Shown: positions 1 through 36,398, numbered from the stretch's first letter. The stretch: 36,398 nucleotides of DNA from a virus (IMGVR_UViG_2869965101_000006); one strand, 5' to 3'. The notes: a model not told the origin generated them from the letters alone. Translations and numbers: made by a program.

Positions 1-61
1 GGTATCCGTTCTGCTGAAGTGTCATGGCGTTGATTTTACGGTGACTCTTCGACAGTGAAAA

Positions 62-83
62 GAAAAAAGGCCGCAGAGCGGCC
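62..83 (-). terminator. putative rho-independent terminator ending the int-orf120-orf146 unit
   Basis: GC stem ggccgc/gcggcc (69..83) preceded on the plus strand by an A-run (62..68), i.e. a U-tract after the stem on the minus strand; lies downstream of the 209..649 ORF. Confidence 0.45.
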
Positions 84-208
84 ATAAACACAAGTAAAAA
101 TCAACAAGTTAGATAATTATCAAAGACTTACAGACACACAAAAACACAGCCAACCACAACAAATAACAGGGATGTGGTCACTTTGTGGATCATATCGCCG
201 CCATAAAT

Positions 209-649
209 TTACTTAATAACAGTAACCACAGCCACAAGCACGGCCATCGCAGACAGGACAATACCTGTGAGTAACCAAGTCTGATTTGCAAATGATTTCT
301 GAAGTTCAGTACGATGCTCAGCCATCTCAACTTTCAGAGACTGGCGTAAATCAGCCATCTCAGACTTCAGGGATTGGCGCGATTCTGCCATCTCAAGCCT
401 CAACCCTTCGCGAATCTCCAGTACATCAGATTTGGTAGCAAAGGATTCGCTTCTTGTAGTGAGAGTAATCAGGTTGTTTTTGATTTCAGTCACATCACTT
501 TCCAGGCAACTGACCCGCCGTTCAAGGTCGTCATTCATGCCATCACCTCCATCATTACCACTTCCTGTTACTTGGTTGTTGGATACATTATAGGCATTCT
601 CTTTCTTTTTTCTGAACCGCGAAATATGTGCAACATTCTCTGCCATCAC
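209..649 (-). CDS. hypothetical membrane-anchored coiled-coil protein (146 aa)
   Basis: ORF start overlaps the stop of the upstream ORF; polar Gly/Asp-rich N-terminus, three 11-residue repeats (SLKSEMADLRQ-like) and a C-terminal hydrophobic helix (LLTGIVLSAMAVLVAVVTVI). Confidence 0.5.
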   Translation of the reverse strand: MMAENVAHISRFRKKKENAYNVSNNQVTGSGNDGGDGMNDDLERRVSCLESDVTEIKNNLITLTTRSESFATKSDVLEIREGLRLEMAESRQSLKSEMADLRQSLKVEMAEHRTELQKSFANQTWLLTGIVLSAMAVLVAVVTVIK

Positions 650-1008
650 TTCTCATCACCCTGCTTGCCTACCCAGTTCATAAAGGCCCGGGCCGAGTAA
701 CGATGAACAAACCCACATCTGTTACAGGTAAGTCGGAATTCATAGTTATGGATATTTTCCCGATCATGTCCCTCATATCCCGGATACCCAGTAAATGGAC
801 CGATGTAATCAAGCATAACAAAAGTGCCTAAATCACACTCCTCAGCAGTTTTCGGCTCAGGCCCCACCTCAACAATATTCGTCAAATACATGTACATATC
901 CGTATCGCCACACGACAAACATTTTTCATTCGTAGACGACTCATTGAGAAAACGCGCAAAATTATCGAGCGTTGCCATTCTTTTAAGTTCATCTAAATGA
1001 AACTTCAC
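646..1008 (-). CDS. hypothetical protein with two Cys pairs (CLSCG...CNRCG), possible zinc ribbon (120 aa)
   Basis: ORF with GTG start 2 nt after the int stop and stop overlapping the next ORF start; no family recognised. Confidence 0.45.
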   Translation of the reverse strand: MKFHLDELKRMATLDNFARFLNESSTNEKCLSCGDTDMYMYLTNIVEVGPEPKTAEECDLGTFVMLDYIGPFTGYPGYEGHDRENIHNYEFRLTCNRCGFVHRYSARAFMNWVGKQGDEK

Positions 1009-1010
1009 TC

Positions 1011-1988
1011 TTAAGCACCTCCTAGTGGATTAAACCTCACCGCATCCTGCAGGTAATCCGGCGCAAGATGGGCATAAATCATCGTTGTCTGAATCTTTGC
1101 GTGCCCCAGAATTTTCTGGAGCGTCAGAATATTGCCGCCGTTCATCATGAAATGACTGGCGAAGGTGTGGTGCAGCGCATGAACAGCCTGGCCGTCAGGA
1201 ACATCAGGTGCGACCGTTTTGATGACATCGCGAACCAATGAATAATCCAGCGTCGGAAACACCAGTTTCCCGCCCCGTTTTTTGATCTTTTCAAACAGGC
1301 TTTCAGAAATAGGAACGGTACGGTTTTTGCTGTTCTTCGTTTTTGAAAAAGTGATTCGACAATGAAGAACACGGCGCTGCTCCAGTGCCGCTACCTCGCC
1401 CCATCGCGCCCCGGTCGACAGAAGGATTTCGACAGCCAGTCGTTCATCGGGATTTTCAGCCAGTGCATCCAGCAACTGAACACATTCAGACTTACTCAGA
1501 TATCCCATTTCGCGCTCCTTAACCTTCATTCCTTTAAGGCCTTGAACGGGGTTATCGTTAAGAAAATGGCCGGATGAGATGAGTGCGGTAAACATCGCGC
1601 TTAACGCCCCAATCTCTCGATTTATGGTGCTGGGCTGTATCCCCTGCTCTATCCTGGACACACGTAGCTCGGTGAGCATCGTTGTATTAAGTTTATGCAC
1701 GCACGGGTCATCCATTGCTTCACTCAAGCGCAGCAATTTAAGGCGCGTGTTATGCCCTGACTTCATTAGCTGGCCGTGGTATTTCCACCACAAGTCAATA
1801 AGCACTGACAGAGGACGGCGATCAATAGAGTTTCCTTTCCACTCATTGTTATGCTGTTGCGCCAGCACCCACCGCTCATATAAAACTGCATCCGATTTCG
1901 TTTTAAATTTTTTGCGAATGCGTTTGCCTTTACGCCCCTCAGGGCACATGTCAAGAAGATACCCTCCCAGAATTGATTTTATGCTCAT
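1011..1988 (-). CDS. int: P2-type tyrosine integrase
   Basis: Start taken at internal Met (MSIKSILGG...) so as not to overlap the repressor; recalled similarity to P2 Int along the whole length, including the C-terminal HALHHTFAS...GHAKIQTTMIYAHL catalytic region. Confidence 0.9.
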   Translation of the reverse strand: MSIKSILGGYLLDMCPEGRKGKRIRKKFKTKSDAVLYERWVLAQQHNNEWKGNSIDRRPLSVLIDLWWKYHGQLMKSGHNTRLKLLRLSEAMDDPCVHKLNTTMLTELRVSRIEQGIQPSTINREIGALSAMFTALISSGHFLNDNPVQGLKGMKVKEREMGYLSKSECVQLLDALAENPDERLAVEILLSTGARWGEVAALEQRRVLHCRITFSKTKNSKNRTVPISESLFEKIKKRGGKLVFPTLDYSLVRDVIKTVAPDVPDGQAVHALHHTFASHFMMNGGNILTLQKILGHAKIQTTMIYAHLAPDYLQDAVRFNPLGGA

Positions 1989-2037
1989 TCGTGAAACCCC
2001 AGCGTTACAAGACCACCATGCCCCCAGCGTTCTATGA

Positions 2038-2346
2038 TTAGCCGGGCTGTGTACCAGTCTTGCGGGATTTTTGAGAAGACGATGTGTTTTCTGGCCCATC
2101 AGGGGAGAGAGAGGGACTGATCTGCCCAGCAGCCTCATTTGTTTTTCCCGTCATAAGCCAATTCATGTACTTAAAAAAGCGAGGGTGATTAACAATCTTG
2201 ATAAGCACTTCGCCCCCTATGTTTTCAATCCGCCCCGTTTCATAACGACGCAAAGTGCCGATAGGCACATCAATCAGGCCGCAAAATTCTTCGCGCGTTA
2301 AATCCTCTGATTCACGAATCACTCTAATTTTTTCACCGATAAGCAT
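2038..2346 (-). CDS. C: P2 C-type immunity repressor
   Basis: About 100 aa, divergent from cox; HTH-like N-terminus and a C-terminus (SSSQKSRKTG) resembling P2 C; start chosen at internal Met. Confidence 0.7.
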   Translation of the reverse strand: MLIGEKIRVIRESEDLTREEFCGLIDVPIGTLRRYETGRIENIGGEVLIKIVNHPRFFKYMNWLMTGKTNEAAGQISPSLSPDGPENTSSSQKSRKTGTQPG

Positions 2347-2442
2347 TGACAGTGTCCCTATAAGTACACTAAGCTTGCGCACAAGGTGTACTTATAAGCA
2401 CACCAAGTCACAAACAACCACAGATAGCGCAGGTTATCACAC
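2347..2442. promoter_or_regulatory. immunity switch region (divergent early/repressor promoters with operator repeats)
   Basis: Intergenic between divergent C and cox; direct repeats ctataagtacac (2358..2369) and cttataagcacac (2391..2403); TTGACA at 2346..2351. Confidence 0.5.
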
Positions 2443-3383: not shown

Positions 3384-3620
3384 ATGGGCAAAGAATATAA
3401 AACTCTCATTAACAAAGCACTTGAGCGTTTTTATTTTCGCTTAAGTGCATCAGGCGCTCATGCTGAACGTGCGGCCCGTGACTCATTGACCAGAGCAATC
3501 CGAAGTCTGTATGACGTGGCTTTTTACGCTGATGATCTGGATGCACTTAACGAACTTTCCGAGCTGATCTGTGCCGCAGTGGATTTGCCCCTATATTTCC
3601 AGACATCTGTTATCACTTAA
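3384..3620 (+). pseudogene. early-region ORF truncated by IS2; C-terminus now encoded by IS2 end sequence
   Basis: ORF runs into the IS2 terminal sequence at 3580; its last residues ([11 protein letters not shown]) are identical to the IS2-derived tail that also replaces the ogr C-terminus. Confidence 0.5.
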
Positions 3621-3844
3621 CCCATTACAAGCCCGCTGCCGCAGATATTCCCGTGGCGAGCGATAACCCAGCGCACTATGCGGATGCCATTCGTTATAAT
3701 GCTCGAACGCCTCTGCAAGGTTCTTTGCTGCCGTTAACCCGTCTGGTTTGGGCATGATACTGATGTAGTCACGCTTTATCGTTTTCACGAAGCTCTCTGC
3801 TATTCCGTTACTCTCCGGACTCCGCACCGCCGTGTTCTTCGGTT
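3580..3844 (-). mobile_element. IS2 remnant (one terminus plus 3' end of insD), about 265 bp
   Basis: 3580..3844 is identical to 33056..33320 of the full IS2 copy; the element is cut off by IS911 at 3845. Confidence 0.8.
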
Positions 3845-3916
3845 TGAAGTGGCACACTGAATTTGGCCACCTGAACAGAGGTGATATGCTCACCTCAGAA
3901 CAACACAGGTGCTCCA

Positions 3917-4338
<422 letters not shown>

Positions 4339-4609
4339 TTACGCAGTCAGGTACTTGAGCTACATGGCATCAGCCATGGTTCGGCCGGAGCAAGAAGCAT
4401 CGCCACAATGGCAACCCGGAGAGGCTACCAGATGGGACGCTGGCTTGCTGGCAGGCTCATGAAAGAGCTGGGGCTGGTCAGCTGTCAGCAGCCGACTCAC
4501 CGGTATAAACGTGGTGGTCATGAACATGTTGCTATCCCTAACTACCTTGAAAGGCTGAACCGCCCCGGGAATCCTGGAGACTAAACTCCCTGAGAAAGAG
4601 GTAAACAGG

Positions 4610-4932
4610 ATGACTAAAAATACTCGTTTTTCCCCCGAAGTCCGTCAGAGGGCGATTCGTATGGTTCTGGAAAGTCAGGGCGAATATGACTCACAGTGGG
4701 CGGCAATTTGTTCCATTGCCCCAAAGATTGGCTGTACACCGGAGACTCTGCGTGTCTGGGTACGCCAGCATGAGCGGGATACCGGAGGCGGTGATGGCGG
4801 GCTCACCACCGCTGAACGTCAGCGTCTGAAAGAGCTGGAACGTGAAAATCGTGAACTGCGCCGCAGTAACGATATCCTTCGCCAGGCTTCCGCTTATTTT
4901 GCGAAGGCGGAGTTCGACCGCCTCTGGAAAAA

Positions 4933-4936
<4 letters not shown>
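4610..4936 (+). CDS. IS629 OrfA
   Basis: 108-aa [24 protein letters not shown]..., IS3-family OrfA. Confidence 0.9.
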
Positions 4937-6395
<1,459 letters not shown>

Positions 6396-7391: not shown

Positions 7392-7982
7392 ATGAGCGAA
7401 ATCAACTATCAGGCATTACGTGAACGTTATTCACCTGTGCCAGTACCGAAATGCCCTATTTGCGGCGAGGAAATGTCAATTCAGCGAATATCTGGAGCAC
7501 AGGTTGTTTATGCCTGCTCCGGTTATGGTGATGATGGAGATTTCAAAATTGGCCGAACTCTTGCTGACGAACATTATGAAAAATCACGCGTAACAGTGTT
7601 GGATGTCGGGGATCCTGAAGTATTGGCGCTACTTGATTGGCTGGAAACCAAAGACAACCGAATCGCTGAACTGGAAAAAATCGCCACTGACTATGCACTT
7701 AAATTCCAGAAAGCACAGGACGCATTAAAGCATGCCGCTTTGCTGCATAGCAGGACGGCGCAACAAACAAATAATTTTGCAGTATCGCTTCCGGACATAA
7801 GCGAATATTTCATTAATGACGTATTTCAGCCCTTGCGATACGAGCGGGATGTTGAAAGAGCCATCATAAAGGCTGGCGGAAAAGCATTGTGGCAGGAGAA
7901 ACACGAGGACAGAACGCATCAGTCATGCGATGTAAATTGTGGATGGTTTAGCCCACTGACGACAGATAAAAATAACACCTGA
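7392..7982 (+). CDS. Ea22/Ead-like prophage protein with Cys-pair motif (196 aa)
   Basis: N-terminus MSEINYQALRE… recalls the lambda Ea22 family; CPICGEE and CDVNCGW motifs; AAGGAG RBS. Confidence 0.45.
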   Translation: MSEINYQALRERYSPVPVPKCPICGEEMSIQRISGAQVVYACSGYGDDGDFKIGRTLADEHYEKSRVTVLDVGDPEVLALLDWLETKDNRIAELEKIATDYALKFQKAQDALKHAALLHSRTAQQTNNFAVSLPDISEYFINDVFQPLRYERDVERAIIKAGGKALWQEKHEDRTHQSCDVNCGWFSPLTTDKNNT

Positions 7983-8472: not shown

Positions 8473-9525
8473 TCAGGATGTGGGCTGGATGTCTAACAGT
8501 GCGTAAGGGTTAAAGCGGATCACCTCTTCGCCAAGCCAGTCATTGATGTGCTTCATGGCCTCCATGACGGGCATCAGCTCGTTAATTGCGTAAACCCGCG
8601 CGGCCTTCTCCACATCACCAAACGCACTTTTTTCACCCGGCATCGCCCCCATCAGTTGCGGCGGAACGCGGTGCGCAGCCAGCACATCATCACGGGATGC
8701 CGCCTTAACATTCATGAACTCATCCTTTGCGGTGATCTGCTGGAACGGCAAAATTTGCACCCCCTCTTTGCCCCCGTTGGGCGCATGAATGAGCACGTTT
8801 TTAAACGCACCACCACCACGCGCACCCTGTAGCGTTTCTTTCAGGGAGTCCATGCTTTCGCGGTTTACCTGCGCGGCACCGATGTAGATGATGCACCCGG
8901 CGTGGGATCCGTTGTCGTAATACAGTTTTCTGAACATGTCCGCCGAATGAGACAGGCTGGCCGAGAGTAATGCGCCGAGATATTCCGGCATGCCGTAGAT
9001 TTCCTGGTTAATGTCAGGATTCATCAGGTGACACACTTTGCCTGGGCGAAACTGAAACGCATCCTTGCCATCCTGCACATACCACCATGATTCAAGATCG
9101 CTTCCGCGTCGCATGTATTTCGCCAGGGCGTGCCGTAATTTAAGCGGTTCGCCGAGCATATTGCTTCGAAGCTCAAGGAATGCGTTACCGAACACAAACC
9201 AGTCCAGCGCCAGCGCCAGCGCCGAGAAATCCTACCGGGAAAGCAGCGGGTGCGGGATGTAGCAACCGAGCAATACATTGCGCTTAAAGTAAAGCGCAGA
9301 CTGATGCCAAGACGTTTGCCGGGCAGCTCTTGCCAGACCGTACCAGTCCACCGGGGGTTCATACCACCGCCCGTTATCAGCACAGTACATATTGTCCAGC
9401 AGGTCATGCCCGGTCAGGCGATAAGGACCATCAAATGTGAATGCACTGAGCGATGATTCTTTCCTGAGCGCATCAGCGAGATCAATGCGTGAACTCATGC
9501 GCACTTTTTTATTTTTTCTGCTCAT
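8473..9525 (-). pseudogene. portal protein (P2 Q-like) with in-frame TAG
   Basis: Two six-frame ORFs (9232..9525 and 8473..9195) are in the same frame, separated by a TAG at 9232..9234 on the minus strand. Confidence 0.8.
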
Positions 9526-11275
9526 CAGAACTCCATAACCGTGAAACGCTCGTTTTCTCCTTCGCCGCCAATCGGTTCGTTAATGACAGCAAGCATGGTT
9601 ACCCACGCAAGGTCGCCGTGGCTGATCCCCCTCGCTCGGTCCGTTTCGTAAGTGATAAAGCCGCCCGGTGTTTTCACCTTACGCACGGCGTTAAAGGCCG
9701 CGACCAGCTCGCGTTCGGCGCGATCGTATTCCCACCGCCCGGCACGCATTATTTGCAGCATTTTCAGTACCAGCGACCGTTTTGATGACAGCGTGAAGGT
9801 GTACGGAATAGCGGCAGGGAAAAACCGTTTCACTATCTGATAAACAGCCTCCCCGTTCCCGCCCGTCACATCAATGCCGATGTGTTCCACGTTGTAGCGA
9901 CACGTGAACTCTTCAATGACTCTGGCCTGTTCTTCAAACTCCAGCCCCTGAACGCGTCGCGTCTCCACCGTTCGAAAACGGCCACCAGGAACAGACGGAG
10001 GAACCACCACGGACACAGCGCCGCTGTCGCCGTTGCCACTGCTGCCGTTTGCGTCATACCCAATCCATACCGGACGATTCCCCATCGGGCGGGGAGCAAA
10101 AGGTTTCCAGTCTTTCCAGTCGTCGTATCCGTCAACGCCGCAGCCAATCAGGATATTCAGGTTAAATGCCGATTCCCCTTCGCGGACAAACTCGCACATA
10201 TAGAGATTGAGGAACTCGTCTTCGGTGTTTTCATCACGAATTTCGTCGATATCGGTGTGTTTCCAGCCGTGATTAACCACATCTTCCAGCGTGACAATTT
10301 GCCGCCACGTCCGGTCAGGGCAGATAAGCCCGTTATGCAGCGTTTTCCAGTCCACAGAAAAACGCTGGCGTTTATGCGAGGCCTTTTTCTCGTTCCAGCG
10401 GTCGCCGTTCCAGTAGGCGTATGCCTCGTGCGTTTCGGTGGATGGCGTGGAGAAGTAGGTGCGCCGCAGTCCGCTGAGGGTTGCCATAGCGCCAGCCACC
10501 TTGCGCAGTTCAGCAAAGCGACTGACCCAGAAAAATTCATCAAAATAAAAATTGCCCGTATAGGACTGTGCCGACGCAGCAGAAGTGCCGAGAAAATGCA
10601 GCTCTGCGCCGTTGGAGAGGATGATTTTATCGCCCCCTTTCAGCTCCACATCAACTTCAGCCGCGCCTTCTGAATAATGCTTTTAAACTGGAACGCCTGA
10701 CGACGCGACGCAGACAAAAAAATCTGGTTACGCTGGTAAGGTTGCGCCACATCGTCACGCAGCGCCATCAGCAGTGCTTCCTGTGCAAAATACCAGGTCG
10801 CCCCAATCTGTCGGGATTTCAGGATCATCCTGTTACGTATCCCGGCTTCCCTGCAAAGGGTCAGGGAGTCAAACCAGCCCCGCTGATGCCACTCCAGCCT
10901 GCTGATGATTTTTTCCCGCAGTGCGGCAATCTGTTCCGGCGTGAAATGATTTTTGAGTTTTTTCGCCCGGCCTTTCTTTCCTGCGGCCATCACATCCGGC
11001 TGGCCATCATGCAGCTTTTTAAGCTGCCGGGTCAGCAGGTCTATTTCCTTAAAGTCACCGCCTGTTTTATTCTGTTTTTCAGTAAGCTGGATGAGGCGCG
11101 CATCGATGGACTGCGTGACACGCTGCCCGGGTGGCGTTTCATCCCACTGGTCACGTTTTTTCCACGCATAAATCGTGTTCGGGTTTATTCCCATCAGACG
11201 TGATATTTCTGCGGGCGGATAACCCTGCCAGTAAAGTTGCCGCGCACGCTGGCGCACAAAAGCGTCCTGAATCAT
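9525..11275 (-). pseudogene. terminase large subunit (P2 P-like), frameshifted
   Basis: N-terminal ORF (10640..11275) and C-terminal ORF (9525..10649) are in different frames. Confidence 0.8.
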
Positions 11276-11429
11276 TGCTCCCCCTGAGTAATTACAGGAA
11301 GATTACCCGCGCGCGAAACTGTTCTCCTTAACCCTCTGTTCTGGCCGTTTTCTTACAACAAAAGCCCTTTGTATCAGCCTGTTACGCTTTGCCATCATGA
11401 CTGAAGAACCAGTCAGAGGGGCAAAAACT

Positions 11430-11885
11430 ATGGCTAATGAAAAAAAGACATCCCGCAAAAAGTTTCGCGTGGCTGTCTCCGGATCAACTGTTGATGGCCG
11501 TGAAATCAGTCCGGTGCATCTGCGTGAAGCCGCCGAGAACTTCAACCCGGATGTTTACGCTGCCCGCGTGAACGTTGAGCACTATCTCTCGCCATGCCCG
11601 TCAAGCGAATTTTCCGCAATGGGCGATGTCACCGCACTGAGTACGGAAGACATTACGGAAGGTCCGCTGGCCGGACGTACTGCGCTGTATGCAGAAATCG
11701 AACCGACCGAGCGCATGAAGCAGCTTGTTGCGGACGGCAAGAAAATCTATTCCAGTATCGAACTGCACCCGCAGTTCTCCGTTAACGGGCGCGCCTATCT
11801 GGTCGGGCTGGCGATGACCGACACCCCGGCAAGCCTGGGCACTGAGCGCCTGAAATTCACGGCACAGCAACGTCAGGCGGTGATG
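11430..11885 (+). pseudogene. capsid scaffold (P2 O-like) N-terminal fragment
   Basis: KKFRVAVSGSTVDGREISPVHLREAAENFNPDVY… resembles the P2 gpO N-terminus; similarity ends near LGTERLKF and the frame runs on into the endolysin. Confidence 0.7.
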
Positions 11886-11921
11886 ACGTTTAACAGTATC
11901 CAGGGTGAAGGAGAAGGACGA

Positions 11922-12314
11922 ATGAGCAACACATTTAAATTCAGCAGCCGGAGCGAAAAGAATTTGCAGGGTGTAAATCCTGATCTGGTGAAAGTGACCC
12001 GACGGGCACTGGAAATCTCGGAAGTGGATTTTGGTATCACCGAAGGGTTGCGCAGCCGTTACCGCCAGAAGCAACTGGTGGCCACGGGTAAGAGCCAGAC
12101 CATGAACAGCCGCCACCTTACGGGGCATGCCGTGGATGTTGTGGCTTATATCGGCAGCCAGGTGTCATGGGAATGGCCGCTGTACGAAAAAATCGCAGCA
12201 GCATTCAGACAGGCCAGCCGGGAACTGAATATTCCGGTGGAATGGGGCGGCGACTGGAAGACCCTGAAAGACGGACCGCATTTTCAGTTACCACACGGAG
12301 CCTATCCGGCATGA
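11922..12314 (+). CDS. endolysin, peptidase M15-like
   Basis: Internal ATG with AGGAGAAGG RBS; 130-aa product with M15-type motifs (HLTGHAVDV…WGGDW). Confidence 0.65.
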   Translation: MSNTFKFSSRSEKNLQGVNPDLVKVTRRALEISEVDFGITEGLRSRYRQKQLVATGKSQTMNSRHLTGHAVDVVAYIGSQVSWEWPLYEKIAAAFRQASRELNIPVEWGGDWKTLKDGPHFQLPHGAYPA

Positions 12315-18009: not shown

Positions 18010-18777
18010 GGTGATGCTGCCAACTTACTGATTTAGTGTATGATGGTGTTTTTGAGGTGCTCCAGTGGCTTCTGTTTCTATCAGCTGTCCCTCCTGTTCA
18101 GCTACTGACGGGGTGGTGCGTAACGGCAAAAGCACTGCCGGACATCAGCGCTATCTCTGCTCTCACTGCCGTAAAACATGGCAACTGCAGTTCACTTACA
18201 CCGCTTCTCAACCCGGTACGCACCAGAAAATTATTGATATGGCCATGAATGGCGTTGGATGCCGGGCAACTGCACGCATTATGGGCGTTAGCCTCAACAC
18301 GATTTTACGTCACTTAAAAAACTCAGGCCGCAGTCGGTAACCTCGCGCATACAGCCGGGCAGTGACGTCATCGTCTGCGCGGAAATGGACGAACAGTGGG
18401 GATACGTCGGGGCTAAATCGCGCCAGCGCTGGCTGTTTTACGCGTATGACAGGCTCCGGAAGACGGTTGTTGCGCACGTATTCGGTGAACGCACTATGGC
18501 GACGCTGGGGCGTCTTATGAGCTTGCTGTCACCCTTTGACGTGGTGATATGGATGACGGATGGCTGGCCACTGTATGAATCCCGCCTGAAGGGAAAGCTG
18601 CACGTAATCAGCAAGCGATATACGCAGCGAATTGAGCGGCATAACCTGAATCTGAGGCAGCACCTGGCACGGCTGGGACGGAAGTCGCTGTCGTTCTCAA
18701 AATCGGTGGAGCTGCATGACAAAGTCATCGGGCATTATCTGAACATAAAACACTATCAATAAGTTGGAGTCATTACC
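18010..18777 (+). mobile_element. IS1, 768 bp, with 9-bp target duplication GGGTTGAAT
   Basis: Ends GGTGATGCTGCCAACTTACTGAT… and …ATCAATAAGTTGGAGTCATTACC; insA 18065..18340 and insB frame 18385..18762; duplication at 18001..18009 and 18778..18786. Confidence 0.9.
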
Positions 18778-25620: not shown

Positions 25621-26905
25621 GCCAAGCCCAAGCGCGGAACGGATGCGATCGGGCACAATGTCCTTGCCGTCCTTCGGTGATGCTGCCAACTTACTGATTT
25701 AGTGTATGATGGTGTTTTTGAGGTGCTCCAGTGGCTTCTGTTTCTATCAGCTGTCCCTCCTGTTCAGCTACTGACGGGGTGGTGCGTAACGGCAAAAGCA
25801 CTGCCGGACATCAGCGCTATCTCTGCTCTCACTGCCGTAAAACATGGCAACTGCAGTTCACTTACACCGCTTCTCAACCCGGTACGCACCAGAAAATTAT
25901 TGATATGGCCATGAATGGCGTTGGATGCCGGGCAACTGCACGCATTATGGGCGTTAGCCTCAACACGATTTTACGTCACTTAAAAAACTCAGGCCGCAGT
26001 CGGTAACCTCGCGCATACAGCCGGGCAGTGACGTCATCGTCTGCGCGGAAATGGACGAACAGTGGGGATACGTCGGGGCTAAATCGCGCCAGCGCTGGCT
26101 GTTTTACGCGTATGACAGGCTCCGGAAGACGGTTGTTGCGCACGTATTCGGTGAACGCACTATGGCGACGCTGGGGCGTCTTATGAGCTTGCTGTCACCC
26201 TTTGACGTGGTGATATGGATGACGGATGGCTGGCCACTGTATGAATCCCGCCTGAAGGGAAAGCTGCACGTAATCAGCAAGCGATATACGCAGCGAATTG
26301 AGCGGCATAACCTGAATCTGAGGCAGCACCTGGCACGGCTGGGACGGAAGTCGCTGTCGTTCTCAAAATCGGTGGAGCTGCATGACAAAGTCATCGGGCA
26401 TTATCTGAACATAAAACACTATCAATAAGTTGGAGTCATTACCCCGTCCTTCCGGTAAATGAAGTTCAGCAGGTCAATCTCCCACAACGGGCGATCGTTA
26501 ACACTCAGCTTGTAGTAGGTGTTTTAATGGCGTAAGTGTGTGATGTGGCTTCGCCCTGTTTGGCTTCCCCCATATCAATTTCCGTCACACGTCCGCGCAT
26601 TTCGACTTCATACAGGTCGCTTTCTGCATCGGTGTAGTATTCACCCGCAAAACGCAGCAGCGTGCCGTCAATCGTGCCGCCATACTTAAGGAACAGCTCA
26701 CGAACTGCGCCCCCATGACAAAGCTCGCATCAAGCGCGGAGTCGTCCAGACCGAGATCAATACTTACCGCACCCATCATGCCACCACCCCGGTAGCTGTC
26801 GGTTTTGCGCGTCAGCTTAGGCAGAGTGACGGACGTCACATTACCCACTTCGTTTTCACCATCCACAAACAGCGTAAAAAAGCGAAGATGTTTTGGCACA
26901 GCCAT
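25621..26905 (-). pseudogene. tail tube (P2 FII-like) destroyed by IS1 and frameshifts
   Basis: N-terminus (…SVTLPKLTRK…DLGLDD…) matches FII; homology then changes frame at least twice (around 26500 and 26700) and is split by IS1. Confidence 0.75.
25676..26443 (+). mobile_element. IS1, second copy, 768 bp, with 9-bp target duplication CCGTCCTTC
   Basis: Identical to the copy at 18010..18777, same orientation; duplication at 25667..25675 and 26444..26452. Confidence 0.9.
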
Positions 26906-28246: not shown

Positions 28247-29356
28247 ATGACCGACACCACCATGCAATTGCTCAGTCAGGGCACGGCCCCCGTGAAAATG
28301 CCGGATTTTGATATTCTCTCGGAGGGTAAAACGCTGTCAGGCGTGGCGGAGCGCCTGATGAGCCTGTAACTGACCGACAACCGGGGATTTGAGGCGGACC
28401 AGCTCACCATCACGCTGGATGATGCGGATGGTCAGTTGCAGCTACCGCCACGGGGCGCGCGTCTGACGGTTCTCATTGGCTGGAAAGGGGAACCGCTGAC
28501 AGAAAAAGGCACTTACATTGTTGATGAAATCGCTCACGAAGGACCGCCGGACAGGCTGACTGTTTCAGCCAGAAGCGCAGATTTTCGGGATGAATTTAAC
28601 GTTAAACGTGAGGTGTCCTGGCATGATGTGACCGTTGAGCGTGTGGTATCCGCCATCGCTCATCGATACGGTCTGAAACCGCAAATCAGCGAAATGCTGA
28701 TGGATATCGAAATCGACCACGCCGACCAGACCGAAGAAAGCGACATGTCCTTTCTTACGCGCATGGCGGAAATGCTGGGAGCAATCGCCACGGTAAAAAG
28801 CGGCAATCTGTTATTCATCATGCCAGGTGGTGGCGTGAACGCACAGGGGCAGCCGTTGCCCTCGTTCGCCATTACACGCAGCAGCGGCGATCGCCATCAG
28901 TTCCGCATTGCTGACCGCGAGGCGTATACGGGGGTACGCGCCTACTGGCTTGATCTTAATTACGGGAAAAAGAAAAAAGTCAGCGTGAAACGCCGCAAAC
29001 CGCCAAAACCCAAAAAGGAGAAAAGCAGCAGTCGGGAAGGCGACTATATGGAAGGTGCGGAAGGCAACGTGTTTGTGTTACGCAAGACTTATCAGAACGA
29101 GCAGGCAGCAAGACGCGCAGCGGCGGCAAAGTGGCAGCAGCTACAACGCGGAGCCGCATCATTCTCCATCACGCTGGCGCGTGGTCGTGCAGAACTCTAT
29201 CCCGAAATGCATGGCACAGTGACAGGCTTTAAAAGCGAGATTGATTATCAGGACTGGATTATTGCAAAAGCCGAGCACACCATTGATAACAGCGGCTTTA
29301 CCACGCAGCTTGAACTTGAAGCAAAAATCCCGGAATGGATAGCAGAAACAGAATAA
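28247..29356 (+). pseudogene. tail protein D (P2 D-like) with in-frame TAA
   Basis: ATG at 28247 after a GGGAGGGAG RBS; in-frame TAA at 28367..28369 inside the conserved …LTDNRGFEADQL… motif; the rest (28436..29356) is open. Confidence 0.75.
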
Positions 29357-29604: not shown

Positions 29605-32600
29605 ATGATTGGACAATTTTTAAGTGCAACAGAGATTTTAGCAAAGAACTATGTTCGTAATAAAATGGTTAAAAATCCATTTTATTCGAATTTAAAATGG
29701 AATTTTATTGAAAAAAACATCATAAGATTAACATCCTCACCGGTTAAATCAGTACTTTGCATATCAGCTTTTTCATTTGTACTACTTTATGTTGGATATT
29801 TAAACGAATTATTTATAAAAAATAATCTTTTACATTATTTCCCGTTTAGGCATTCATTAACCGAATGGCAAACAACCATTTTAAGTGGCCAATTGACAAT
29901 TATTGGTATTGTATACCCCCTTGTTATAGGTTTAGTAAGTATCTTATTCCAAAAAAAGGCAGATAGAAAAATAGCCCAAACTGCTTATCAGCGTTACTCA
30001 GGATTCATGCTTGCTGGACTCAGCGGGCTTTTCTTATCAGGATTTATACTTCTCAGTGTACTAATTAAAACTGTCTTTGGAAGTTATCTTTATGGTATAG
30101 CTTGTCTAATCAGCATATTATGGCTTTTGATAAACATAGTTCTTTCTATTTGGTTCTTTATCGTGAGTCTTGAAATTCTTGATGATGTAAAACGGCAAAT
30201 AATTATAAAGCGATACATTGCCTTCGAAATAGTAATGCCCCATATTTGTAACAAAATCTCAGCCAAGCTTAGGTTATACCCTATCTATCAAAAACATAAC
30301 TATTCAAATTTAGAAATCAAGCAAGCCGATTACAAAGGAGAATACATATCTGTGGCTAGCAGTTATTCTAAGGAAGATGAGTTAAGTTTATATCACCGTC
30401 CTTTTCAACTTACTCTTAATCTTATTAATTACCAACTAAAAAAGAAGAATCATTTTGCGTCATTTGTCATTGGTGATAATCGTACAAAAGAAACAGAATC
30501 CACGGGTAAGATACTTTTTAGCGTTAAAAATATCAAACCAGACAGCTTATTAATAAAAATACTTAAGCAATGTTTTTATAGGGCTCCGATTAAAGGAGGA
30601 GATTTTTCCGTAAGTCTTACAATGCAGGCTATAACAGCAGATACGTATATGTATCTGCGGGATTCTGATCTCATTAGTTTTGACAATGCTATCTCTGCAT
30701 TAATTAATAACTTTAATAATCTCTGCGATTTGTATTTTTTTCAAGATGATAATACCAACAATAACTTCTTACTGATCACTACAGAATTATTTGAACGGAG
30801 TTTTCAATATGAGTTTTCAGATGAAGTTTATAAAATATCAAATAATTCCATGGATAAAATTAATCTTTCTGAAAGATTTTTTGAATTATGTCTTTGGAGC
30901 GGAGTGCGTATTATCAATAATAGAAAACATCTTATCAGCAATGAACTTTGTATCTATATGGGAATTACTCGTTCACAATGGTCAATATTAACAGAATGGT
31001 TCCGAAACAACCAATCACTCTTAAATGCCTCGCTTCGTTCACGTTATAATCGTATATTAAGAACCTATACCACTGTTTGGGAGCAATATCAAGAAAGCAT
31101 AAACTTTCGTTTCTGCAATACAGAGAATTCAGATTTATTTGAATTATTTTGCAAAACGCAACTACAAGAACTTCCATCGATGATTATTGATGCAACACAG
31201 ACTCGCGATCCTTCTACTATTGATACAGCCGTCGATCTTATTAACCGATGGCAGCACTCAATGAATATTGACAGCCATTCGGTAGAAAAATACAGTTACA
31301 AAGGCCAGCTTTTTAACCCGGGTTTTTTCATATCCAAAAAACTAAACTTCAATTCAGACAGAGAGTGGTTCAATATTGCCATCATAAATGCGTTGACTGA
31401 CATGCGTATATGCACATGTCTTTATCTGACATCAAGAATCAATACTTCTGACAAACTAATGACACATTACATTAAACTTATTTTAGAGGGTAAACTTATT
31501 GACCAAACCGGTGGATATGAAACTCCCACTGAAGAAATTGATAATGCAAGCCAACTAATCAAGATATTAATTAGAATCTGCCTGTGGACATGGTCTGAAA
31601 ATATGGAACACAATGGGTGGATGAATAGTTTAGCAAGGCGTTTACGTGACTATGATAAAACAGACATGGTGATGGGCAGAGTTTACAGTAATGTTTTTGA
31701 CTGTGGATTTATTGATATGGAACAATCATGGGTTCAGCTATTATTAATTTTTTCTAACAAGAACGATAGCGTATCAAAAGAAATAAAAGAAGCAATAGAA
31801 AACAACTATATAACATATCGTGAGAAGCAACGACTCATTGGAGTATTATCAAAAATTTGTAACTCCATCGAATACACTAAAATCAAGCTGACTTTAACAT
31901 TGGACGATCTCCAAACAAAAAAAGAAAACTTAAGAAAGTTGCTTCAAGAGCATATTAACATGCTAAAGAAAGATCTTGATATGAGACTTCAGGATGCTGC
32001 CATAGATGTACATCGACTAGATAGCACTGCACGTAAAACATCAGAACATCTTCGTAAACGCATCAAGAAAACGCTCCCTCTTTCACTTTTTAAATCTATT
32101 GATTTTAAGCAGGCTAGCGATTGTTTCACAAAACATAAGATATCTATTAAGATAGATAAAGAACCGTATGCCGAAGGAATAGAATCCATCCCTTATATCA
32201 ATGAAGGTGATATTCAAGCAGACTTAATTCTCAAGGACATCCAGAGAATAATACTTTCAAATTTATTTAGCACTGGCTGTTCGCAACATACCGTAATAGA
32301 AGATTTCAATATGTTGATTGATCACATAAAATCATCTGCTGACTTGGCTGGCAAACTGGTTCTTGTGATGAGTAAAGAGATCTTTCAGCAATATAATCGT
32401 ATGCTTTTCGATAATCCCAACCTCAGAGAACTAATGAGAAAAAATGATGATGGCTCTATGAACATAACTACTGAATCCGGTACCCGTAAGGTTTACTTCT
32501 TACCATTTGTTAATCAACCATTTTCTCTTGTGGTAAAGGATAACTACTTCACTAAATTAATTATTAGAGAATATGATAATAATAAGTTAGTAAATGTCAC

Positions 32601-32724
32601 TTCAGAGAATATCAAAAGTGACTCAGATAAATTCAAGCTAACTCTTAACTATGAGTTGAATGTAGTATTTGAAGGAAACGCTGATTTAAAAATAGCTCAC
32701 TCGCAAAGAGTGACATCAGAATAA
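29605..32724 (+). CDS. large hypothetical membrane-anchored protein (1039 aa), AT-rich cargo gene
   Basis: Uninterrupted ORF; four hydrophobic helices in the first ~190 aa then ~850 aa of Asn/Lys/Ile-rich soluble sequence; no Walker A, HxH or other obvious catalytic motif by eye. Confidence 0.75.
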   Translation: MIGQFLSATEILAKNYVRNKMVKNPFYSNLKWNFIEKNIIRLTSSPVKSVLCISAFSFVLLYVGYLNELFIKNNLLHYFPFRHSLTEWQTTILSGQLTIIGIVYPLVIGLVSILFQKKADRKIAQTAYQRYSGFMLAGLSGLFLSGFILLSVLIKTVFGSYLYGIACLISILWLLINIVLSIWFFIVSLEILDDVKRQIIIKRYIAFEIVMPHICNKISAKLRLYPIYQKHNYSNLEIKQADYKGEYISVASSYSKEDELSLYHRPFQLTLNLINYQLKKKNHFASFVIGDNRTKETESTGKILFSVKNIKPDSLLIKILKQCFYRAPIKGGDFSVSLTMQAITADTYMYLRDSDLISFDNAISALINNFNNLCDLYFFQDDNTNNNFLLITTELFERSFQYEFSDEVYKISNNSMDKINLSERFFELCLWSGVRIINNRKHLISNELCIYMGITRSQWSILTEWFRNNQSLLNASLRSRYNRILRTYTTVWEQYQESINFRFCNTENSDLFELFCKTQLQELPSMIIDATQTRDPSTIDTAVDLINRWQHSMNIDSHSVEKYSYKGQLFNPGFFISKKLNFNSDREWFNIAIINALTDMRICTCLYLTSRINTSDKLMTHYIKLILEGKLIDQTGGYETPTEEIDNASQLIKILIRICLWTWSENMEHNGWMNSLARRLRDYDKTDMVMGRVYSNVFDCGFIDMEQSWVQLLLIFSNKNDSVSKEIKEAIENNYITYREKQRLIGVLSKICNSIEYTKIKLTLTLDDLQTKKENLRKLLQEHINMLKKDLDMRLQDAAIDVHRLDSTARKTSEHLRKRIKKTLPLSLFKSIDFKQASDCFTKHKISIKIDKEPYAEGIESIPYINEGDIQADLILKDIQRIILSNLFSTGCSQHTVIEDFNMLIDHIKSSADLAGKLVLVMSKEIFQQYNRMLFDNPNLRELMRKNDDGSMNITTESGTRKVYFLPFVNQPFSLVVKDNYFTKLIIREYDNNKLVNVTSENIKSDSDKFKLTLNYELNVVFEGNADLKIAHSQRVTSE

Positions 32725-32859: not shown

Positions 32860-33096
32860 ATGTTCCGTTGTCCGCTTTGTGGCGCATCTGCCCGTATCCG
32901 CACCAGTCGTCCGGAAAATGATTCAAACACCGTGAGACAAAAGTATTATCAGTGTAACAATCTAGAATGCGGCGTATGTTTCTCAACACTGGAAGCCTTC
33001 CACAAATTCACTTCAAAGCACGCCTCCCCCATTCACTCATCAGAGGGCATCCCGTTGGATTTGCCCCTATATTTCCAGACATCTGTTATCACTTAA
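32860..33096 (+). pseudogene. ogr: late-gene activator ogr, 3' end replaced by the IS2 insertion
   Basis: MFRCPLCGASARIRTSR…YYQCNNLECGVCFS zinc-finger N-terminus like P2 Ogr; from codon 66 the frame is IS2 sequence; original 3' end at 34388..34452. Confidence 0.8.
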
Positions 33097-33972
33097 CCCA
33101 TTACAAGCCCGCTGCCGCAGATATTCCCGTGGCGAGCGATAACCCAGCGCACTATGCGGATGCCATTCGTTATAATGCTCGAACGCCTCTGCAAGGTTCT
33201 TTGCTGCCGTTAACCCGTCTGGTTTGGGCATGATACTGATGTAGTCACGCTTTATCGTTTTCACGAAGCTCTCTGCTATTCCGTTACTCTCCGGACTCCG
33301 CACCGCCGTGTTCTTCGGTTCAAGTCCCAACATCCGGGCGAACTGGCGTGTTTCATTAGCCCGGTAGCATGAACCATTATCCGTCAGCCACTCCACTGGA
33401 GACGACGGAAGATCGTTGCCGAAGCGGCGTTCCACCGCTCCCAGCATGACGTCCTGTACTGTTTCACTGTTGAAGCCGCCGGTAGTCACCGCCCAGTGCA
33501 GTGCCTCACGATCACAGCAGTCCAGCGCGAACGTGACACGCAGTCTCTCTCCGTTATCACAGCAGAACTCGAACCCGTCAGAGCACCATCGCTGATTGCT
33601 TTCTTTCACGGCCACTCTGCCTGTATGTGCCCGTTTCGATGGCGGTACAGCAGGTTTTCGCTCAAGCAACAGGGCATTCTGGCGCATGATCCGGTAAACA
33701 CGTTTGGCATTGATCGCAGGCATACCATCAAGTTCTGCCTGTCTGCGAAGCAGCGCCCATACCCGACGATAACCATACGTGGGCAGCTCTCCGATAACAT
33801 GGTGTATACGGAGAAGCACATCCGTATCATCAGTGTGACGACTGCGGCGGCCATCCATCCAGTCATCGGTTCGTCTGAGAATGACGTGCAACTGCGCACG
33901 CGACACCCGGAGACAACGGCTGACTAAGCTTACTCCCCATCCCCGGGCAATAAGGGCGCGTGCGCTATCCAC
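33067..33972 (-). CDS. insD: IS2 InsD (OrfB, DDE transposase)
   Basis: 301-aa ORF; its 3' end is the sequence duplicated in the remnant at 3580..3844. Confidence 0.85.
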
Positions 33973-34336
33973 TTTTTTGCCCGTCCATATTCAACGGCTT
34001 CTTTGAGGAGTTCATTTTCCATCGTTTTCTTGCCGAGCAGGCGCTGGAGTTCTTTAATCTGCTTCATGGCGGCAGCAAGTTCAGAGGCAGGAACAACCTG
34101 TTCTCCGGCGGCCACAGCAGTAAGACTTCCTTCCTGGTATTGCTTACGCCAGAGAAATAACTGGCTGCTACACCATGTTGCCGGGCAACGAGGGAGACCG
34201 TCATCCCCGGTTCAAAGCTCTGCTGAACAATTGCGATCTTTTCCTGTGTGGTACGCCGTCTGCGTTTCTCCGGCCCTAAGACATCAATCATCTGTACTCC
34301 AATGACTAGTCTAAAAACTAGTATTAAGACTATCAC
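33930..34336 (-). pseudogene. insC: IS2 insC (orfA) with internal frameshift
   Basis: orfA is split into two overlapping ORFs (34064..34336 and 33930..34115) in different frames. Confidence 0.6.
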
Positions 34337-34642
34337 TTATTTAAGTGATACTGGTTGTCTGGAGATTCAGGGGGCCAGTCTACCCGTGGCATGAACTGCC
34401 AACTTCACACAGAGGAAACAATCAGATGAGTTTGCCCTTACCTCAGAATTAACGAGCAGAATTGCCGGAGTAACAAAAAAGCGATAGATTACGCGCGGGT
34501 GCCTTTCGGCTGATGGTCGGAGGGAATACCTGAAGGCCAGATGTGGAAAGGCCCCGGAAAACATTTTTGTTTAACCGAGGCCCTAACCGTCTACCCTAAG
34601 CAAGTGATAGGTTAGCGCCTCCCCGAAAAAGGAGCAAGCGCT

Positions 34643-34783
34643 ATGTCGCAAAAATCGCTTACGGCCATCACGTTCTGCGTGACGGCAATCCTCATCATCT
34701 GGATGCTGCACGGTTCGCTGTGCGAAATACGGATGAGCTTCTGGGGAGCGGAGTTTGCGGCGTTCTTACAGTGTAAGCAGTAA
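34643..34783 (+). CDS. Hok/Gef-family type I toxin (46 aa)
   Basis: AAAAAGGAG RBS; small hydrophobic peptide with the family signature …SLCEIR…EFAAFLQCK. Confidence 0.6.
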   Translation: MSQKSLTAITFCVTAILIIWMLHGSLCEIRMSFWGAEFAAFLQCKQ

Positions 34784-34870
34784 GGAAACCGCGACGGGGG
34801 AGCAATCCCCCGTCAATCGGTTGCCAGGGTAAGGTCGATAAGGCACCCTATCTCACAGACATGAACAACA

Positions 34871-35201: not shown

Positions 35202-36398
35202 ATGACCGAATCCAGCGATTACGAATCCGTCCAGGTCTTTATCGGCGTTGATGTCGGTAAAGATACGCATCACGCTGTTGCCATTAATCGTTCAGGTAAA
35301 CGCCTGTTCGATAAAGCATTACCCAACGACGAAAACAAACTCAGGTCGCTAATATCTGACCTGAAACAACATGGTCAGATACTGCTGGTTGTTGATCAGC
35401 CAGCTACCATCGGTGCGTTACCTGTCGCCGTTGCCCGCTCAGAAGGAGTCCTTGTCGGATACCTCCCTGGACTGGCCATGCGCCGCATAGCCGACTTACA
35501 CGCCGGTGAAGCTAAAACTGATGCTCGTGACGCTGCCATCATTGCCGAAGCTGCCCGTACCCTGCCTCACGCGCTACGCACGCTGAAACTGGCTGACGAG
35601 CAAATCGCCGAACTCTCCATGCTCTGCGGCTTCGATGATGATCTTGCCGCACAGACAACGCAGGCCAGCAACCGTATCCGCGGCCTTCTGACCCAGATAC
35701 ATCCGGCACTGGAGCGCGTTCTCGGTCCGAGACTTGAGCACCCGGCGGTACTCGATCTTCTCCAGCGATATCCCTCACCAGAAAAACTCGCTTCGCTGGG
35801 TGAGAAGAAGCTGGCAGCCCAGCTCTGCAAACTTGCGCCTCGTCTGGGTAAACGCCTTGCAGCAGACATAGCTCAGGCACTGGCCGAACAAACCGTCGTC
35901 GTTCCCGGCACGAATGCCGCTGCCGTAGTACTGCCACGTCTGGCACTCCAGCTCATCACGCTGCGTAAGCAAAGAGACGAGGTGGCGCTTGAGGTAGAAC
36001 AGCGAGTTCTTGCTCACCCTCTTTACCCGGTCCTGACCAGTATGCCCGGAGTCGGTGTCAGGACCGCAGCCAGACTCCTCACCGAGGTCGCCTGCCGCGC
36101 CTTCGCCTCTGCCGCACATCTCGCTGCTTATGCTGGCCTTGCGCCGGTAACTCGGCGATCCGGCTCGTCAATACGCGGTGAGCATCCCTCGCGACGGGGT
36201 AATAAAGCTCTCAAACGGGCGTTGTTCCTGTCGGCCTTCGCCGCGCTCAGGGATCCGCTCTCCAGGGCTTACTACACCCGCAAAATGAGTCAGGGAAAAC
36301 GACACAATCAGGCGCTTATCGCCCTGGCGAGACGACGCTGCGACGTTCTGTTCGCCATGATGCGCGACGGGACTTTTTATACCCCGCAGGGGTCATAA
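35202..36398 (+). CDS. IS110-family (DEDD) transposase/recombinase
   Basis: 398-aa ORF; N-terminal FIGVDVGKDTHH RuvC-like motif and C-terminal …SMPGVGVRTAARLL… region; GGAGACAG RBS; stop coincides with the window end. Confidence 0.8.
   Translation: MTESSDYESVQVFIGVDVGKDTHHAVAINRSGKRLFDKALPNDENKLRSLISDLKQHGQILLVVDQPATIGALPVAVARSEGVLVGYLPGLAMRRIADLHAGEAKTDARDAAIIAEAARTLPHALRTLKLADEQIAELSMLCGFDDDLAAQTTQASNRIRGLLTQIHPALERVLGPRLEHPAVLDLLQRYPSPEKLASLGEKKLAAQLCKLAPRLGKRLAADIAQALAEQTVVVPGTNAAAVVLPRLALQLITLRKQRDEVALEVEQRVLAHPLYPVLTSMPGVGVRTAARLLTEVACRAFASAAHLAAYAGLAPVTRRSGSSIRGEHPSRRGNKALKRALFLSAFAALRDPLSRAYYTRKMSQGKRHNQALIALARRRCDVLFAMMRDGTFYTPQGS

Follow-up and report, generated by a model that had tools for sequence, protein, structure and literature searches.

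The window analysed here is a 36,398-nt stretch of viral DNA (IMGVR_UViG_2869965101_000006), and all coordinates are those of the whole stretch. It holds a P2-like prophage whose repressor gene C and integrase gene int are followed, on the same strand, by two small open reading frames (ORFs) at 209-1008, here named orfA and orfB. This pair is a phage-borne, promoterless, two-gene cargo (moron) located between the int stop codon and the arm of the attachment (att) site. The features of the locus are compiled in Table 1.

Counted from its RefSeq start at window position 1988, int codes for 325 amino acids (aa) and ends with TAA at 1013-1011. The GTG start codon of orfA (1008-1006) lies 2 nt past this stop and has the string GGAGGTG just upstream. 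The start of orfB overlaps the TGA of orfA (648-646) within GTGATG, and the two genes are translationally coupled. An earlier note, made from the sequence alone, had described a 120-aa protein with cysteine pairs directly behind int, a 146-aa membrane-anchored coiled-coil protein whose start overlaps the preceding stop, and a terminator past both genes; all three were confirmed. Many gene callers begin orfB at the internal residue M38, which gives a protein of 109 aa. The long form is favoured because its N-terminal extension is under purifying selection and because the frame is open in every variant. The ratio of non-synonymous to synonymous substitution rates (dN/dS), measured against relatives with a dS of about 1, is 0.22 for orfA and 0.15-0.17 for orfB; if orfB is restricted to its 37 N-terminal codons, the ratio is 0.17-0.24. 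Thus, orfA and orfB are real genes under purifying selection. That they are chance open frames is ruled out by these values and by the coupling, which is kept in 11 divergent versions of the pair.

The boundaries of the prophage were determined by comparison with empty sites and with the intact SE11 prophage. According to the SE11 comparison, window position 1 is the base right after the end of the btuC coding sequence. Among 5426 complete E. coli genomes, approximately 5100 have an empty site, in which the match to the window ends at position 83 and is followed by ihfA. The host/phage junction is therefore 83/84. The P2-like prophage is thus inserted at the E. coli btuC/ihfA site. In the intact SE11 relative, a second copy of the 25-bp core AAAGAAAAAAGGCCGCAGAGCGGCC adjoins ihfA at the opposite prophage end. 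Furthermore, in an excised circular P2-like genome of 32 kb from Klebsiella (CP052639), int is immediately followed by a homologous pair. The junction, the repeated core and the excised Klebsiella genome consequently place orfA and orfB inside the prophage as phage cargo. An attachment site between int and the two ORFs, which the earlier note had named as an observation that would speak against its reading, is ruled out by the junction and by the core repeat at the far end of the SE11 prophage. An assignment of the ORFs as host genes was likewise rejected, as both lie within the att-bounded prophage; neither ORF has homology to core genes of the P2 family or to host housekeeping genes.

The phage att arm was detected at 92-100% identity in 300 of the 5426 complete E. 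coli genomes. When the window was compared by means of blastn to five sister prophages of the same site (L002, L004, L005, L006, and L007), a stretch of approximately 98% identity ended at position 193-198 and another began at 1018-1027, and nothing was alignable between 194 and 1017/1026. Because the flanks are nearly identical and the interior lacks any similarity, the interval represents an exchangeable cassette. Its cargo falls into four classes, which cover all 300 genomes with an att arm. Class A, the pair of the window, occurs in 82-86 complete E. coli genomes; class B-like, a zinc-ribbon protein of 161-166 aa plus a protein named "DUF1640", in 39; class D, a pair of 127 aa and 99 aa, in 17; and class C, a single unrelated gene for 131 aa, in 158. 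Hence, about 142 of the 300 sites hold a version of the same pair (A, B, or D) and 158 (53%) the unrelated single gene; the interval was empty in none of the 300. The class C cargo is a soluble protein (WP_000416308/304; L002:4190-4585, L005:3107-3502) with no match in Pfam or PADLOC, and its carriers include O104:H4 and O111 strains.

Several accessory hotspots of P2-like prophages are known: old/tin between gpA and Q, Z/fun (Rousset et al. 2022, PMC9122126), and, as a minor site, the int-att interval (PMC13586616). The latter study, in which thousands of P2-like prophages were surveyed in 2026, assigned 3% of the recognisable P2 defence systems to int-att and termed the location atypical. 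Like the cargo of these hotspots, that of the window is variable, sharply bounded and enclosed by conserved core genes, in this case in the int-att interval. In contrast to them, the proteins of the window match no PADLOC 2.0 family, and the cassette has no promoter of its own and is probably read from C-int. We are therefore dealing with an uncharacterised family in a known kind of locus. The earlier note had proposed to compare the occupancy of the int-att interval and had interpreted the pair as a moron; the sharply bounded cassette, which differs between prophages of approximately 98% identity and lacks a promoter, supports this interpretation, as does the hotspot report.

Upstream of orfA, the cassette contains the Shine-Dalgarno (SD) sequence only (about 10-17 nt before the start codon), and about 15 nt follow orfB. 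No convincing minus-strand promoter was found upstream of orfA. As the cassette lacks a promoter of its own in this short leader, transcription from C-int is needed. A single strong minus-strand terminator is present in the interval 1-2600; it consists of GGCCGCTCTGCGGCC and a T-run at 83-62. A terminator scan located its hairpin at 83-69, with six GC pairs preceding the T-run; it is the ihfA terminator and, at the same time, the att core. It is thus probable that the pair is transcribed only as the 3' part of a lysogenic operon that starts with C and int, and that the transcript terminates at the att core.

Table 1. Features of the orfA-orfB locus in the window
Feature	Coordinates	Strand	Evidence or remark
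C-type helix-turn-helix (HTH) repressor, first gene of the operon C-int-orfA-orfB	2038..2382	-	Pfam HTH_3; phrog_147 1e-31; SE11 annotation
P2-type tyrosine integrase (int), upstream operon gene	1011..2138	-	Pfam Int_N 2e-28, Phage_integrase 8e-18; SE11 RefSeq annotation
orfA, 120 aa, phrog_4293	1008..646	-	four invariant cysteines, predicted zinc ribbon
orfB, phrog_9415	649..209 (GTG, 146 aa) or 646..209 (ATG, 145 aa)	-	predicted tail-anchored coiled coil
Internal GGAGGTGATGGCATG, SD-like element and in-frame ATG (M38) in orfB	552-536	-	possible second start, 109-aa isoform
33-nt tandem repeat, codes for the 11-residue (hendecad) repeats of OrfB	318..383	-	repeat scan
Exchangeable promoterless cargo cassette (orfA + orfB)	194..1017	-	blastn versus sister prophages
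Phage att arm, left flank of the cargo cassette	84..193		common to all prophages of the site
att core, 25-bp direct repeat AAAGAAAAAAGGCCGCAGAGCGGCC	59..83		also host ihfA intrinsic terminator; second copy at far end of SE11 prophage

OrfA is predicted to be a zinc-ribbon protein on the basis of two conserved CxxC knuckles. The four cysteines C30, C33, C95, and C98 are invariant in a set of 18 and in a set of 42 sequences, down to approximately 15-20% identity; G99, W112, F20, and L21 are invariant as well. All members share a layout of Phe/Leu at positions 20/21, a CxxCG motif, a variable insert, a second CxxCG(F/Y) motif, and a C-terminal helix with the invariant Trp. An AlphaFold2 (AF2) model (pLDDT 67, pTM 0.65) consists of two N-terminal helices, a three-stranded sheet with the knuckles, and a C-terminal helix. 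Neither a fold nor a sequence match was detected in PDB or BFVD, no domain was detected in Pfam, and a profile search of PDB sequences was empty. All comparisons with zinc-ribbon families of Pfam and NCBIfam gave E-values above 0.01 and scores below the cut-offs, and no match to HTH, ribbon-helix-helix (RHH), or AbrB proteins was found. The protein is acidic (pI 5.1), and it is therefore unlikely to bind DNA. A function as an Ogr-type activator was ruled out by the differing spacing of the cysteines, by the acidity, and by a separate ogr gene at 32861. OrfA belongs to phrog_4293, which is annotated as being of unknown function. Exhaustive and profile searches yielded about 50 clusters in all, each of them "hypothetical" and none with a Pfam domain; they are confined to Escherichia, Salmonella, Klebsiella, Raoultella, Serratia, Providencia, and Aeromonas. 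A tblastn search of plasmids with the OrfA of the window gave no match. The OrfA family is previously undescribed.

OrfB is composed of an N-terminal extension (residues 1-37), a Gly/Asp-rich (G/D) linker, M38, a helix of hendecad repeats, and a C-terminal transmembrane (TM) segment (residues 127-145). The latter reaches a mean Kyte-Doolittle value of 2.65 over 19 residues and is followed by a single Lys. In the AF2 model, residues 1-37 are of low confidence and one helix runs across residues 38-145. OrfB is probably a tail-anchored inner-membrane protein whose coiled-coil stalk, of variable length, lies on the cytoplasmic side. The number of hendecads ranges from two to five across alleles (P0043, P0045, the window, P0041). 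The corresponding family, phrog_9415, is likewise of unknown function; its members have a type-specific N-terminal extension, a Gly/Asp linker, a conserved start-capable codon, and a coiled coil of the LERRVERLE type. The junction of the N-terminal extension and the body, at the linker, has an SD-like element in all 11 variants examined, and an in-frame ATG or GTG follows this element at a distance of 5-9 nt. A short OrfB isoform devoid of the N-terminal extension is therefore plausible. A tblastn search of phage records with the OrfB of the window gave no match, and a profile search of PDB sequences returned generic coiled coils only.

Sequence comparisons show that the window carries one allele of a rapidly diverging family of gene pairs. 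Members of this family occur in Enterobacterales and in Aeromonas, in both cases in P2-like prophages, and, as a moron, in one Klebsiella siphophage. Although their identity is approximately 20-30%, classes A, B, and D are homologous. In the 11 divergent versions, both the gene order and the start/stop coupling are preserved; with the long frame of orfB, the two genes either overlap by 1-17 nt or meet in TAAGTG. The surroundings of the pair differ: the order is C-int-A-B-att in Klebsiella, the pair adjoins ogr in Providencia, and in the Klebsiella siphophage ST101-KPC2phi6.1 it is part of a moron island that contains an HNH/Bro-N gene and lies ahead of the tape-measure region. In a P2-like prophage of Aeromonas, the pair is located between the repressor and int, in the order C-(267 aa)-A-B-int, which speaks for its being part of the operon. 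The gene for the 267-aa protein (L013:4188-4991) has a weak precomputed match to Flk_N, and a Pfam scan at a threshold of 0.001 was empty. Flk is a tail-anchored regulator.

With respect to these data, selfish or neutral passenger DNA that is of no use to phage or host is a highly improbable explanation of the pair. It would accord with the narrow taxonomic range of the family; yet both genes are under purifying selection, the four cysteines are invariant across approximately 20% identity, the order and coupling of the genes are conserved across genera, and the interval is never empty in the 300 genomes.

Pairwise comparisons of alleles reveal a mosaic structure. The window and L021 share only 27% identity in orfA and 33% (floor level) in the N-terminal extension of OrfB, and 82% in the OrfB body. 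For the window and L019, the relation is reversed, with 68% in orfA, 57% in the extension, and 36% in the body. L019 and L020 again share 32%, 31%, and 63%, respectively. Thus, orfA plus the N-terminal extension on the one hand, and the coiled coil plus TM segment on the other hand, are separate exchange units that are joined at the G/D linker. That orfA and the extension are exchanged together, and apart from the body, suggests that OrfA docks on the N-terminal extension of OrfB. Across all 36 pairs, the correlation between orfA identity and identity of the extension is not significant (Spearman rho 0.25, p 0.15), whereby short global alignments have a floor of approximately 30% and locus L004 is mis-segmented in this set. 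For these reasons the mosaic argument is based on the individual contrasting pairs.

It is conceivable that the pair is a lysogen-expressed superinfection-exclusion or abortive-infection module that functions in inter-phage conflict, and we assign a probability of about 0.4 to this candidate function, which is our best guess. In such a module, the zinc-ribbon protein OrfA would dock on the short N-terminal peptide that sits atop the flexible G/D linker of OrfB, and the internal start may give rise to a short OrfB that is unable to bind OrfA. Recognition or regulation would be the task of OrfA as the variable subunit, and an XhlA- or holin-like OrfB would be the membrane effector, which becomes active only when OrfA is titrated or displaced. 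Such a mode of action would be akin to that of lambda RexA/RexB or to a cytoplasmic antiholin acting on a holin. RexA and RexB are a soluble and a membrane partner that are co-transcribed with the repressor in the lysogen. RIII of phage T4 is a small cytoplasmic protein; it binds holin T, a lysis protein of the membrane, at the N-terminus on the cytoplasmic side. In contrast to the pair, RexB is polytopic, and neither RexA/RexB nor RIII/T has any relation to it in sequence or fold. PdpSau of S. aureus prophages is a membrane-anchored protein that, in response to infection, abolishes membrane polarity and brings about abortive infection (PMC10127798). It resembles OrfB in being the product of a prophage accessory gene and in its membrane anchor; however, it is encoded by a single gene, has an N-terminal membrane helix, is linked to lysis genes rather than to int, and is unrelated in sequence. 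A more far-reaching version of the proposal is a novel modular, membrane-tethered anti-phage system in which a recognition unit (OrfA plus docking peptide) is recombined with an effector unit (stalk plus anchor), and in which the ratio of long to short OrfB and the binding of OrfA would gate permeabilisation. This version is rather doubtful.

The lead for a membrane effector is given by the C-terminal TM segment and the single long helix of OrfB, by XhlA matches of its relatives, and by matches of single family members to PHROG holin and hemolysin families. XhlA is part of the PBSX lysis cassette xhlA-xhlB-xlyA. The architecture of XhlA (PF10779), which consists of a short coiled coil and a C-terminal TM anchor, is also that of the OrfB of the window. 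The XhlA profile has 67 positions, of which 3-66 are covered by the alignments of three OrfB relatives; these score 29.6, 21.6, and 18.6 bits, compared to a gathering score of 34.7, and the OrfB of the window has no XhlA match in Pfam; it does not belong to this family. Unlike XhlA, OrfB possesses the N-terminal extension, the G/D linker, and the hendecad repeats, and its partner gene codes for a zinc-ribbon protein, whereas XhlA is accompanied by a holin and an amidase. XhlA-domain genes have also been found beside cI in lambdoid prophages of Mannheimia (PMC4553209).

The location of the pair directly beside int and att, together with the XhlA-like matches among OrfB relatives, could be taken to mean that it is an accessory of integration/excision or of lysis, with OrfA as a directionality or regulatory zinc finger or with OrfB as an XhlA-type holin partner. 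Prophages with approximately 98% identical int and att-arm regions carry an unrelated gene instead, and the pair is therefore dispensable for Int function. Moreover, the window contains a separate Cox/Apl-type gene at 2443-2721, and a full holin/endolysin/spanin cassette is found elsewhere in the intact SE11 relative. The pair itself shares its strand with the lysogenic genes and is remote from the late genes. An accessory role of this kind is thus very unlikely.

A second lead concerns the CCDC90-like/DUF1640 family (PF07798) and the Bdr proteins of Borrelia. Bdr proteins have a C-terminal hydrophobic anchor and central 11-residue repeats of variable copy number. RefSeq names the type-B OrfB allele DUF1640; this allele scores 26.5 bits and the OrfB of the window 10.9 bits (E 0.43), which is below the gathering score of 33.5 in both cases. 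The type-B OrfB also matches Borrelia Bdr (tblastn E 1e-6 to 1e-5) and DUF1640 proteins. Bdr and the pair have in common that they are borne by prophages and combine an inner-membrane location with a C-terminal anchor and a variable number of 11-residue repeats. They differ in that the match is below the cut-off and due mostly to repeats and coiled coil, and in that Bdr has no known zinc-ribbon partner. Bdr is encoded on cp32 prophages and associated with the inner membrane, and its function is not known (PMC10016077). The likenesses to XhlA, DUF1640, and Bdr are architectural leads and not memberships. The earlier note had recognised neither protein. This holds insofar as neither belongs to a characterised family; however, both are members of PHROG families, and OrfB relatives have the sub-threshold matches just described.

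If the likeness to Bdr and to DUF1640/MCUR1-like proteins is taken at face value, an inner-membrane OrfB could act as a scaffold for lysogenic conversion or host physiology by tethering a zinc-ribbon adaptor that alters a host process, and the location of the pair in the lysogenic operon would be in agreement with such a role. The similarity is absent for the allele of the window, though, and Bdr, with its own function not known, explains little. Furthermore, the extreme divergence of the alleles and their swapping between near-identical prophages fit an arms race better. We therefore regard this explanation as quite unlikely.

The pair could also be read as an addiction or toxin-antitoxin (TA)-like stabilisation system, with OrfB as a small membrane toxin and OrfA as its co-translated antidote. 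A cell would then be killed or arrested if it lost the prophage or if the operon were switched off. The genes are small and coupled, the soluble partner comes first, and OrfB is a membrane protein with relatives that have sub-threshold holin- and XhlA-like matches. A Hok/Gef gene is present at the other end of the prophage. In addition, the pair is intact in a defective prophage riddled with insertion sequences (IS), and it is retained beside att in a rearranged locus that lacks int (L011). On the other hand, the autoregulated promoter and the DNA-binding antitoxin of type II systems were not found: the cassette has neither a promoter nor an operator of its own, and OrfA is acidic and has no DNA-binding signature, which is unlike autoregulated type II antitoxins. 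The long structured coiled coil of OrfB is unlike known short membrane toxins, and 53% of the sister prophages hold an unrelated single soluble protein instead. Stabilisation by addiction is consequently an unlikely function of the pair.

Several findings also weigh against the exclusion or abortive-infection module proposed above. The earlier note had listed defence among the possible functions, and a scan with PADLOC-DB 2.0 recognised no known system for either protein: the pair and its relatives gave no match beyond coiled-coil noise, the best scores of the window proteins being those for Cas12a (E 0.03) and LmuB (E 0.007), and the relatives matched only coiled-coil regions of ZorA and LmuB. 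A literature search by accession and for DUF1640, XhlA, and tail-anchored or exclusion themes retrieved no study of these proteins. The XhlA and DUF1640 matches are below the Pfam gathering scores, and the XhlA match is missing for the OrfB of the window itself. SD-plus-start sites arise by chance also inside int and C, and adjacency in recombination alone could link orfA with the N-terminal extension. The role assigned to OrfA is a guess, since its AF2 model is of no more than moderate confidence (pLDDT 67) and a match to its fold was not found. Finally, a tail-anchored OrfB, with its bulk in the cytoplasm, is ill-placed to stop phage entry from the periplasm.

If exclusion or abortive infection is nevertheless the function, the pair would represent a new type of membrane effector, encoded by promoterless cargo that rides on the repressor-integrase transcript. 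If it is not, the pair would still offer a handle on the enigmatic tail-anchored prophage proteins of the XhlA, DUF1640, and Bdr-like kind. In either case, nearly half of the cargo in the int-att interval at this E. coli site consists of versions of one uncharacterised pair that no defence catalogue recognises. The pair provides a testable architecture, which comprises a zinc-ribbon partner, a docking peptide, a stalk, an anchor, and possibly a dual start, as well as a natural allelic series in near-isogenic prophages.

The prophage of the window is defective. Insertion sequences are located at 3580-5823, 18010-18309, 25676-25975, 33056-34385, and 35202-36398, with a repeated IS end at 18010 and 25676. 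One of the IS3-family copies interrupts the ogr-like zinc-finger ORF at about 33056, and an IS110-family transposase cuts the right end of the prophage at about 34975, which is why there is no attR in the window. The large terminase subunit (9525-10649, minus strand) has 374 aa compared to 583 aa in SE11. At 11397-12314 (plus strand), the N-terminus of the GPO scaffold is fused to a Peptidase_M15_4 endolysin domain, which implies that the genes from capsid to holin are deleted. A gene for a replication endonuclease was not seen in the window. In spite of these defects, int, orfA, and orfB have remained intact and share 99.7% identity with their SE11 counterparts.

Further genes outside of the cassette deserve mention. 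The Hok/Gef-family gene for a small membrane toxin lies at 34644-34784 (plus strand) and corresponds to L023:28105-28245 of SE11, where it is located between ogr and attR and annotated as Hok/Gef. An ORF of 1039 aa (29605-32724, plus strand) is situated between gpD (28436-29356) and the ogr-like gene (32861); it has no Pfam match at 1e-5 and no PADLOC match. As SE11 has a different gene of 384 aa on the other strand at this place, the D-ogr interval looks like a further variable cargo site. The gpA-portal interval of SE11 (L023:406-2913), which is the classical P2 gpA-Q defence hotspot, contains three hypothetical genes of 263, 114, and 458 aa. In the early region of the window, the gene at 7392-7982 (plus strand) codes for an Ead/Ea22-like protein (Pfam 2e-32), a domain that would be expected in a lambdoid phage rather than in P2.

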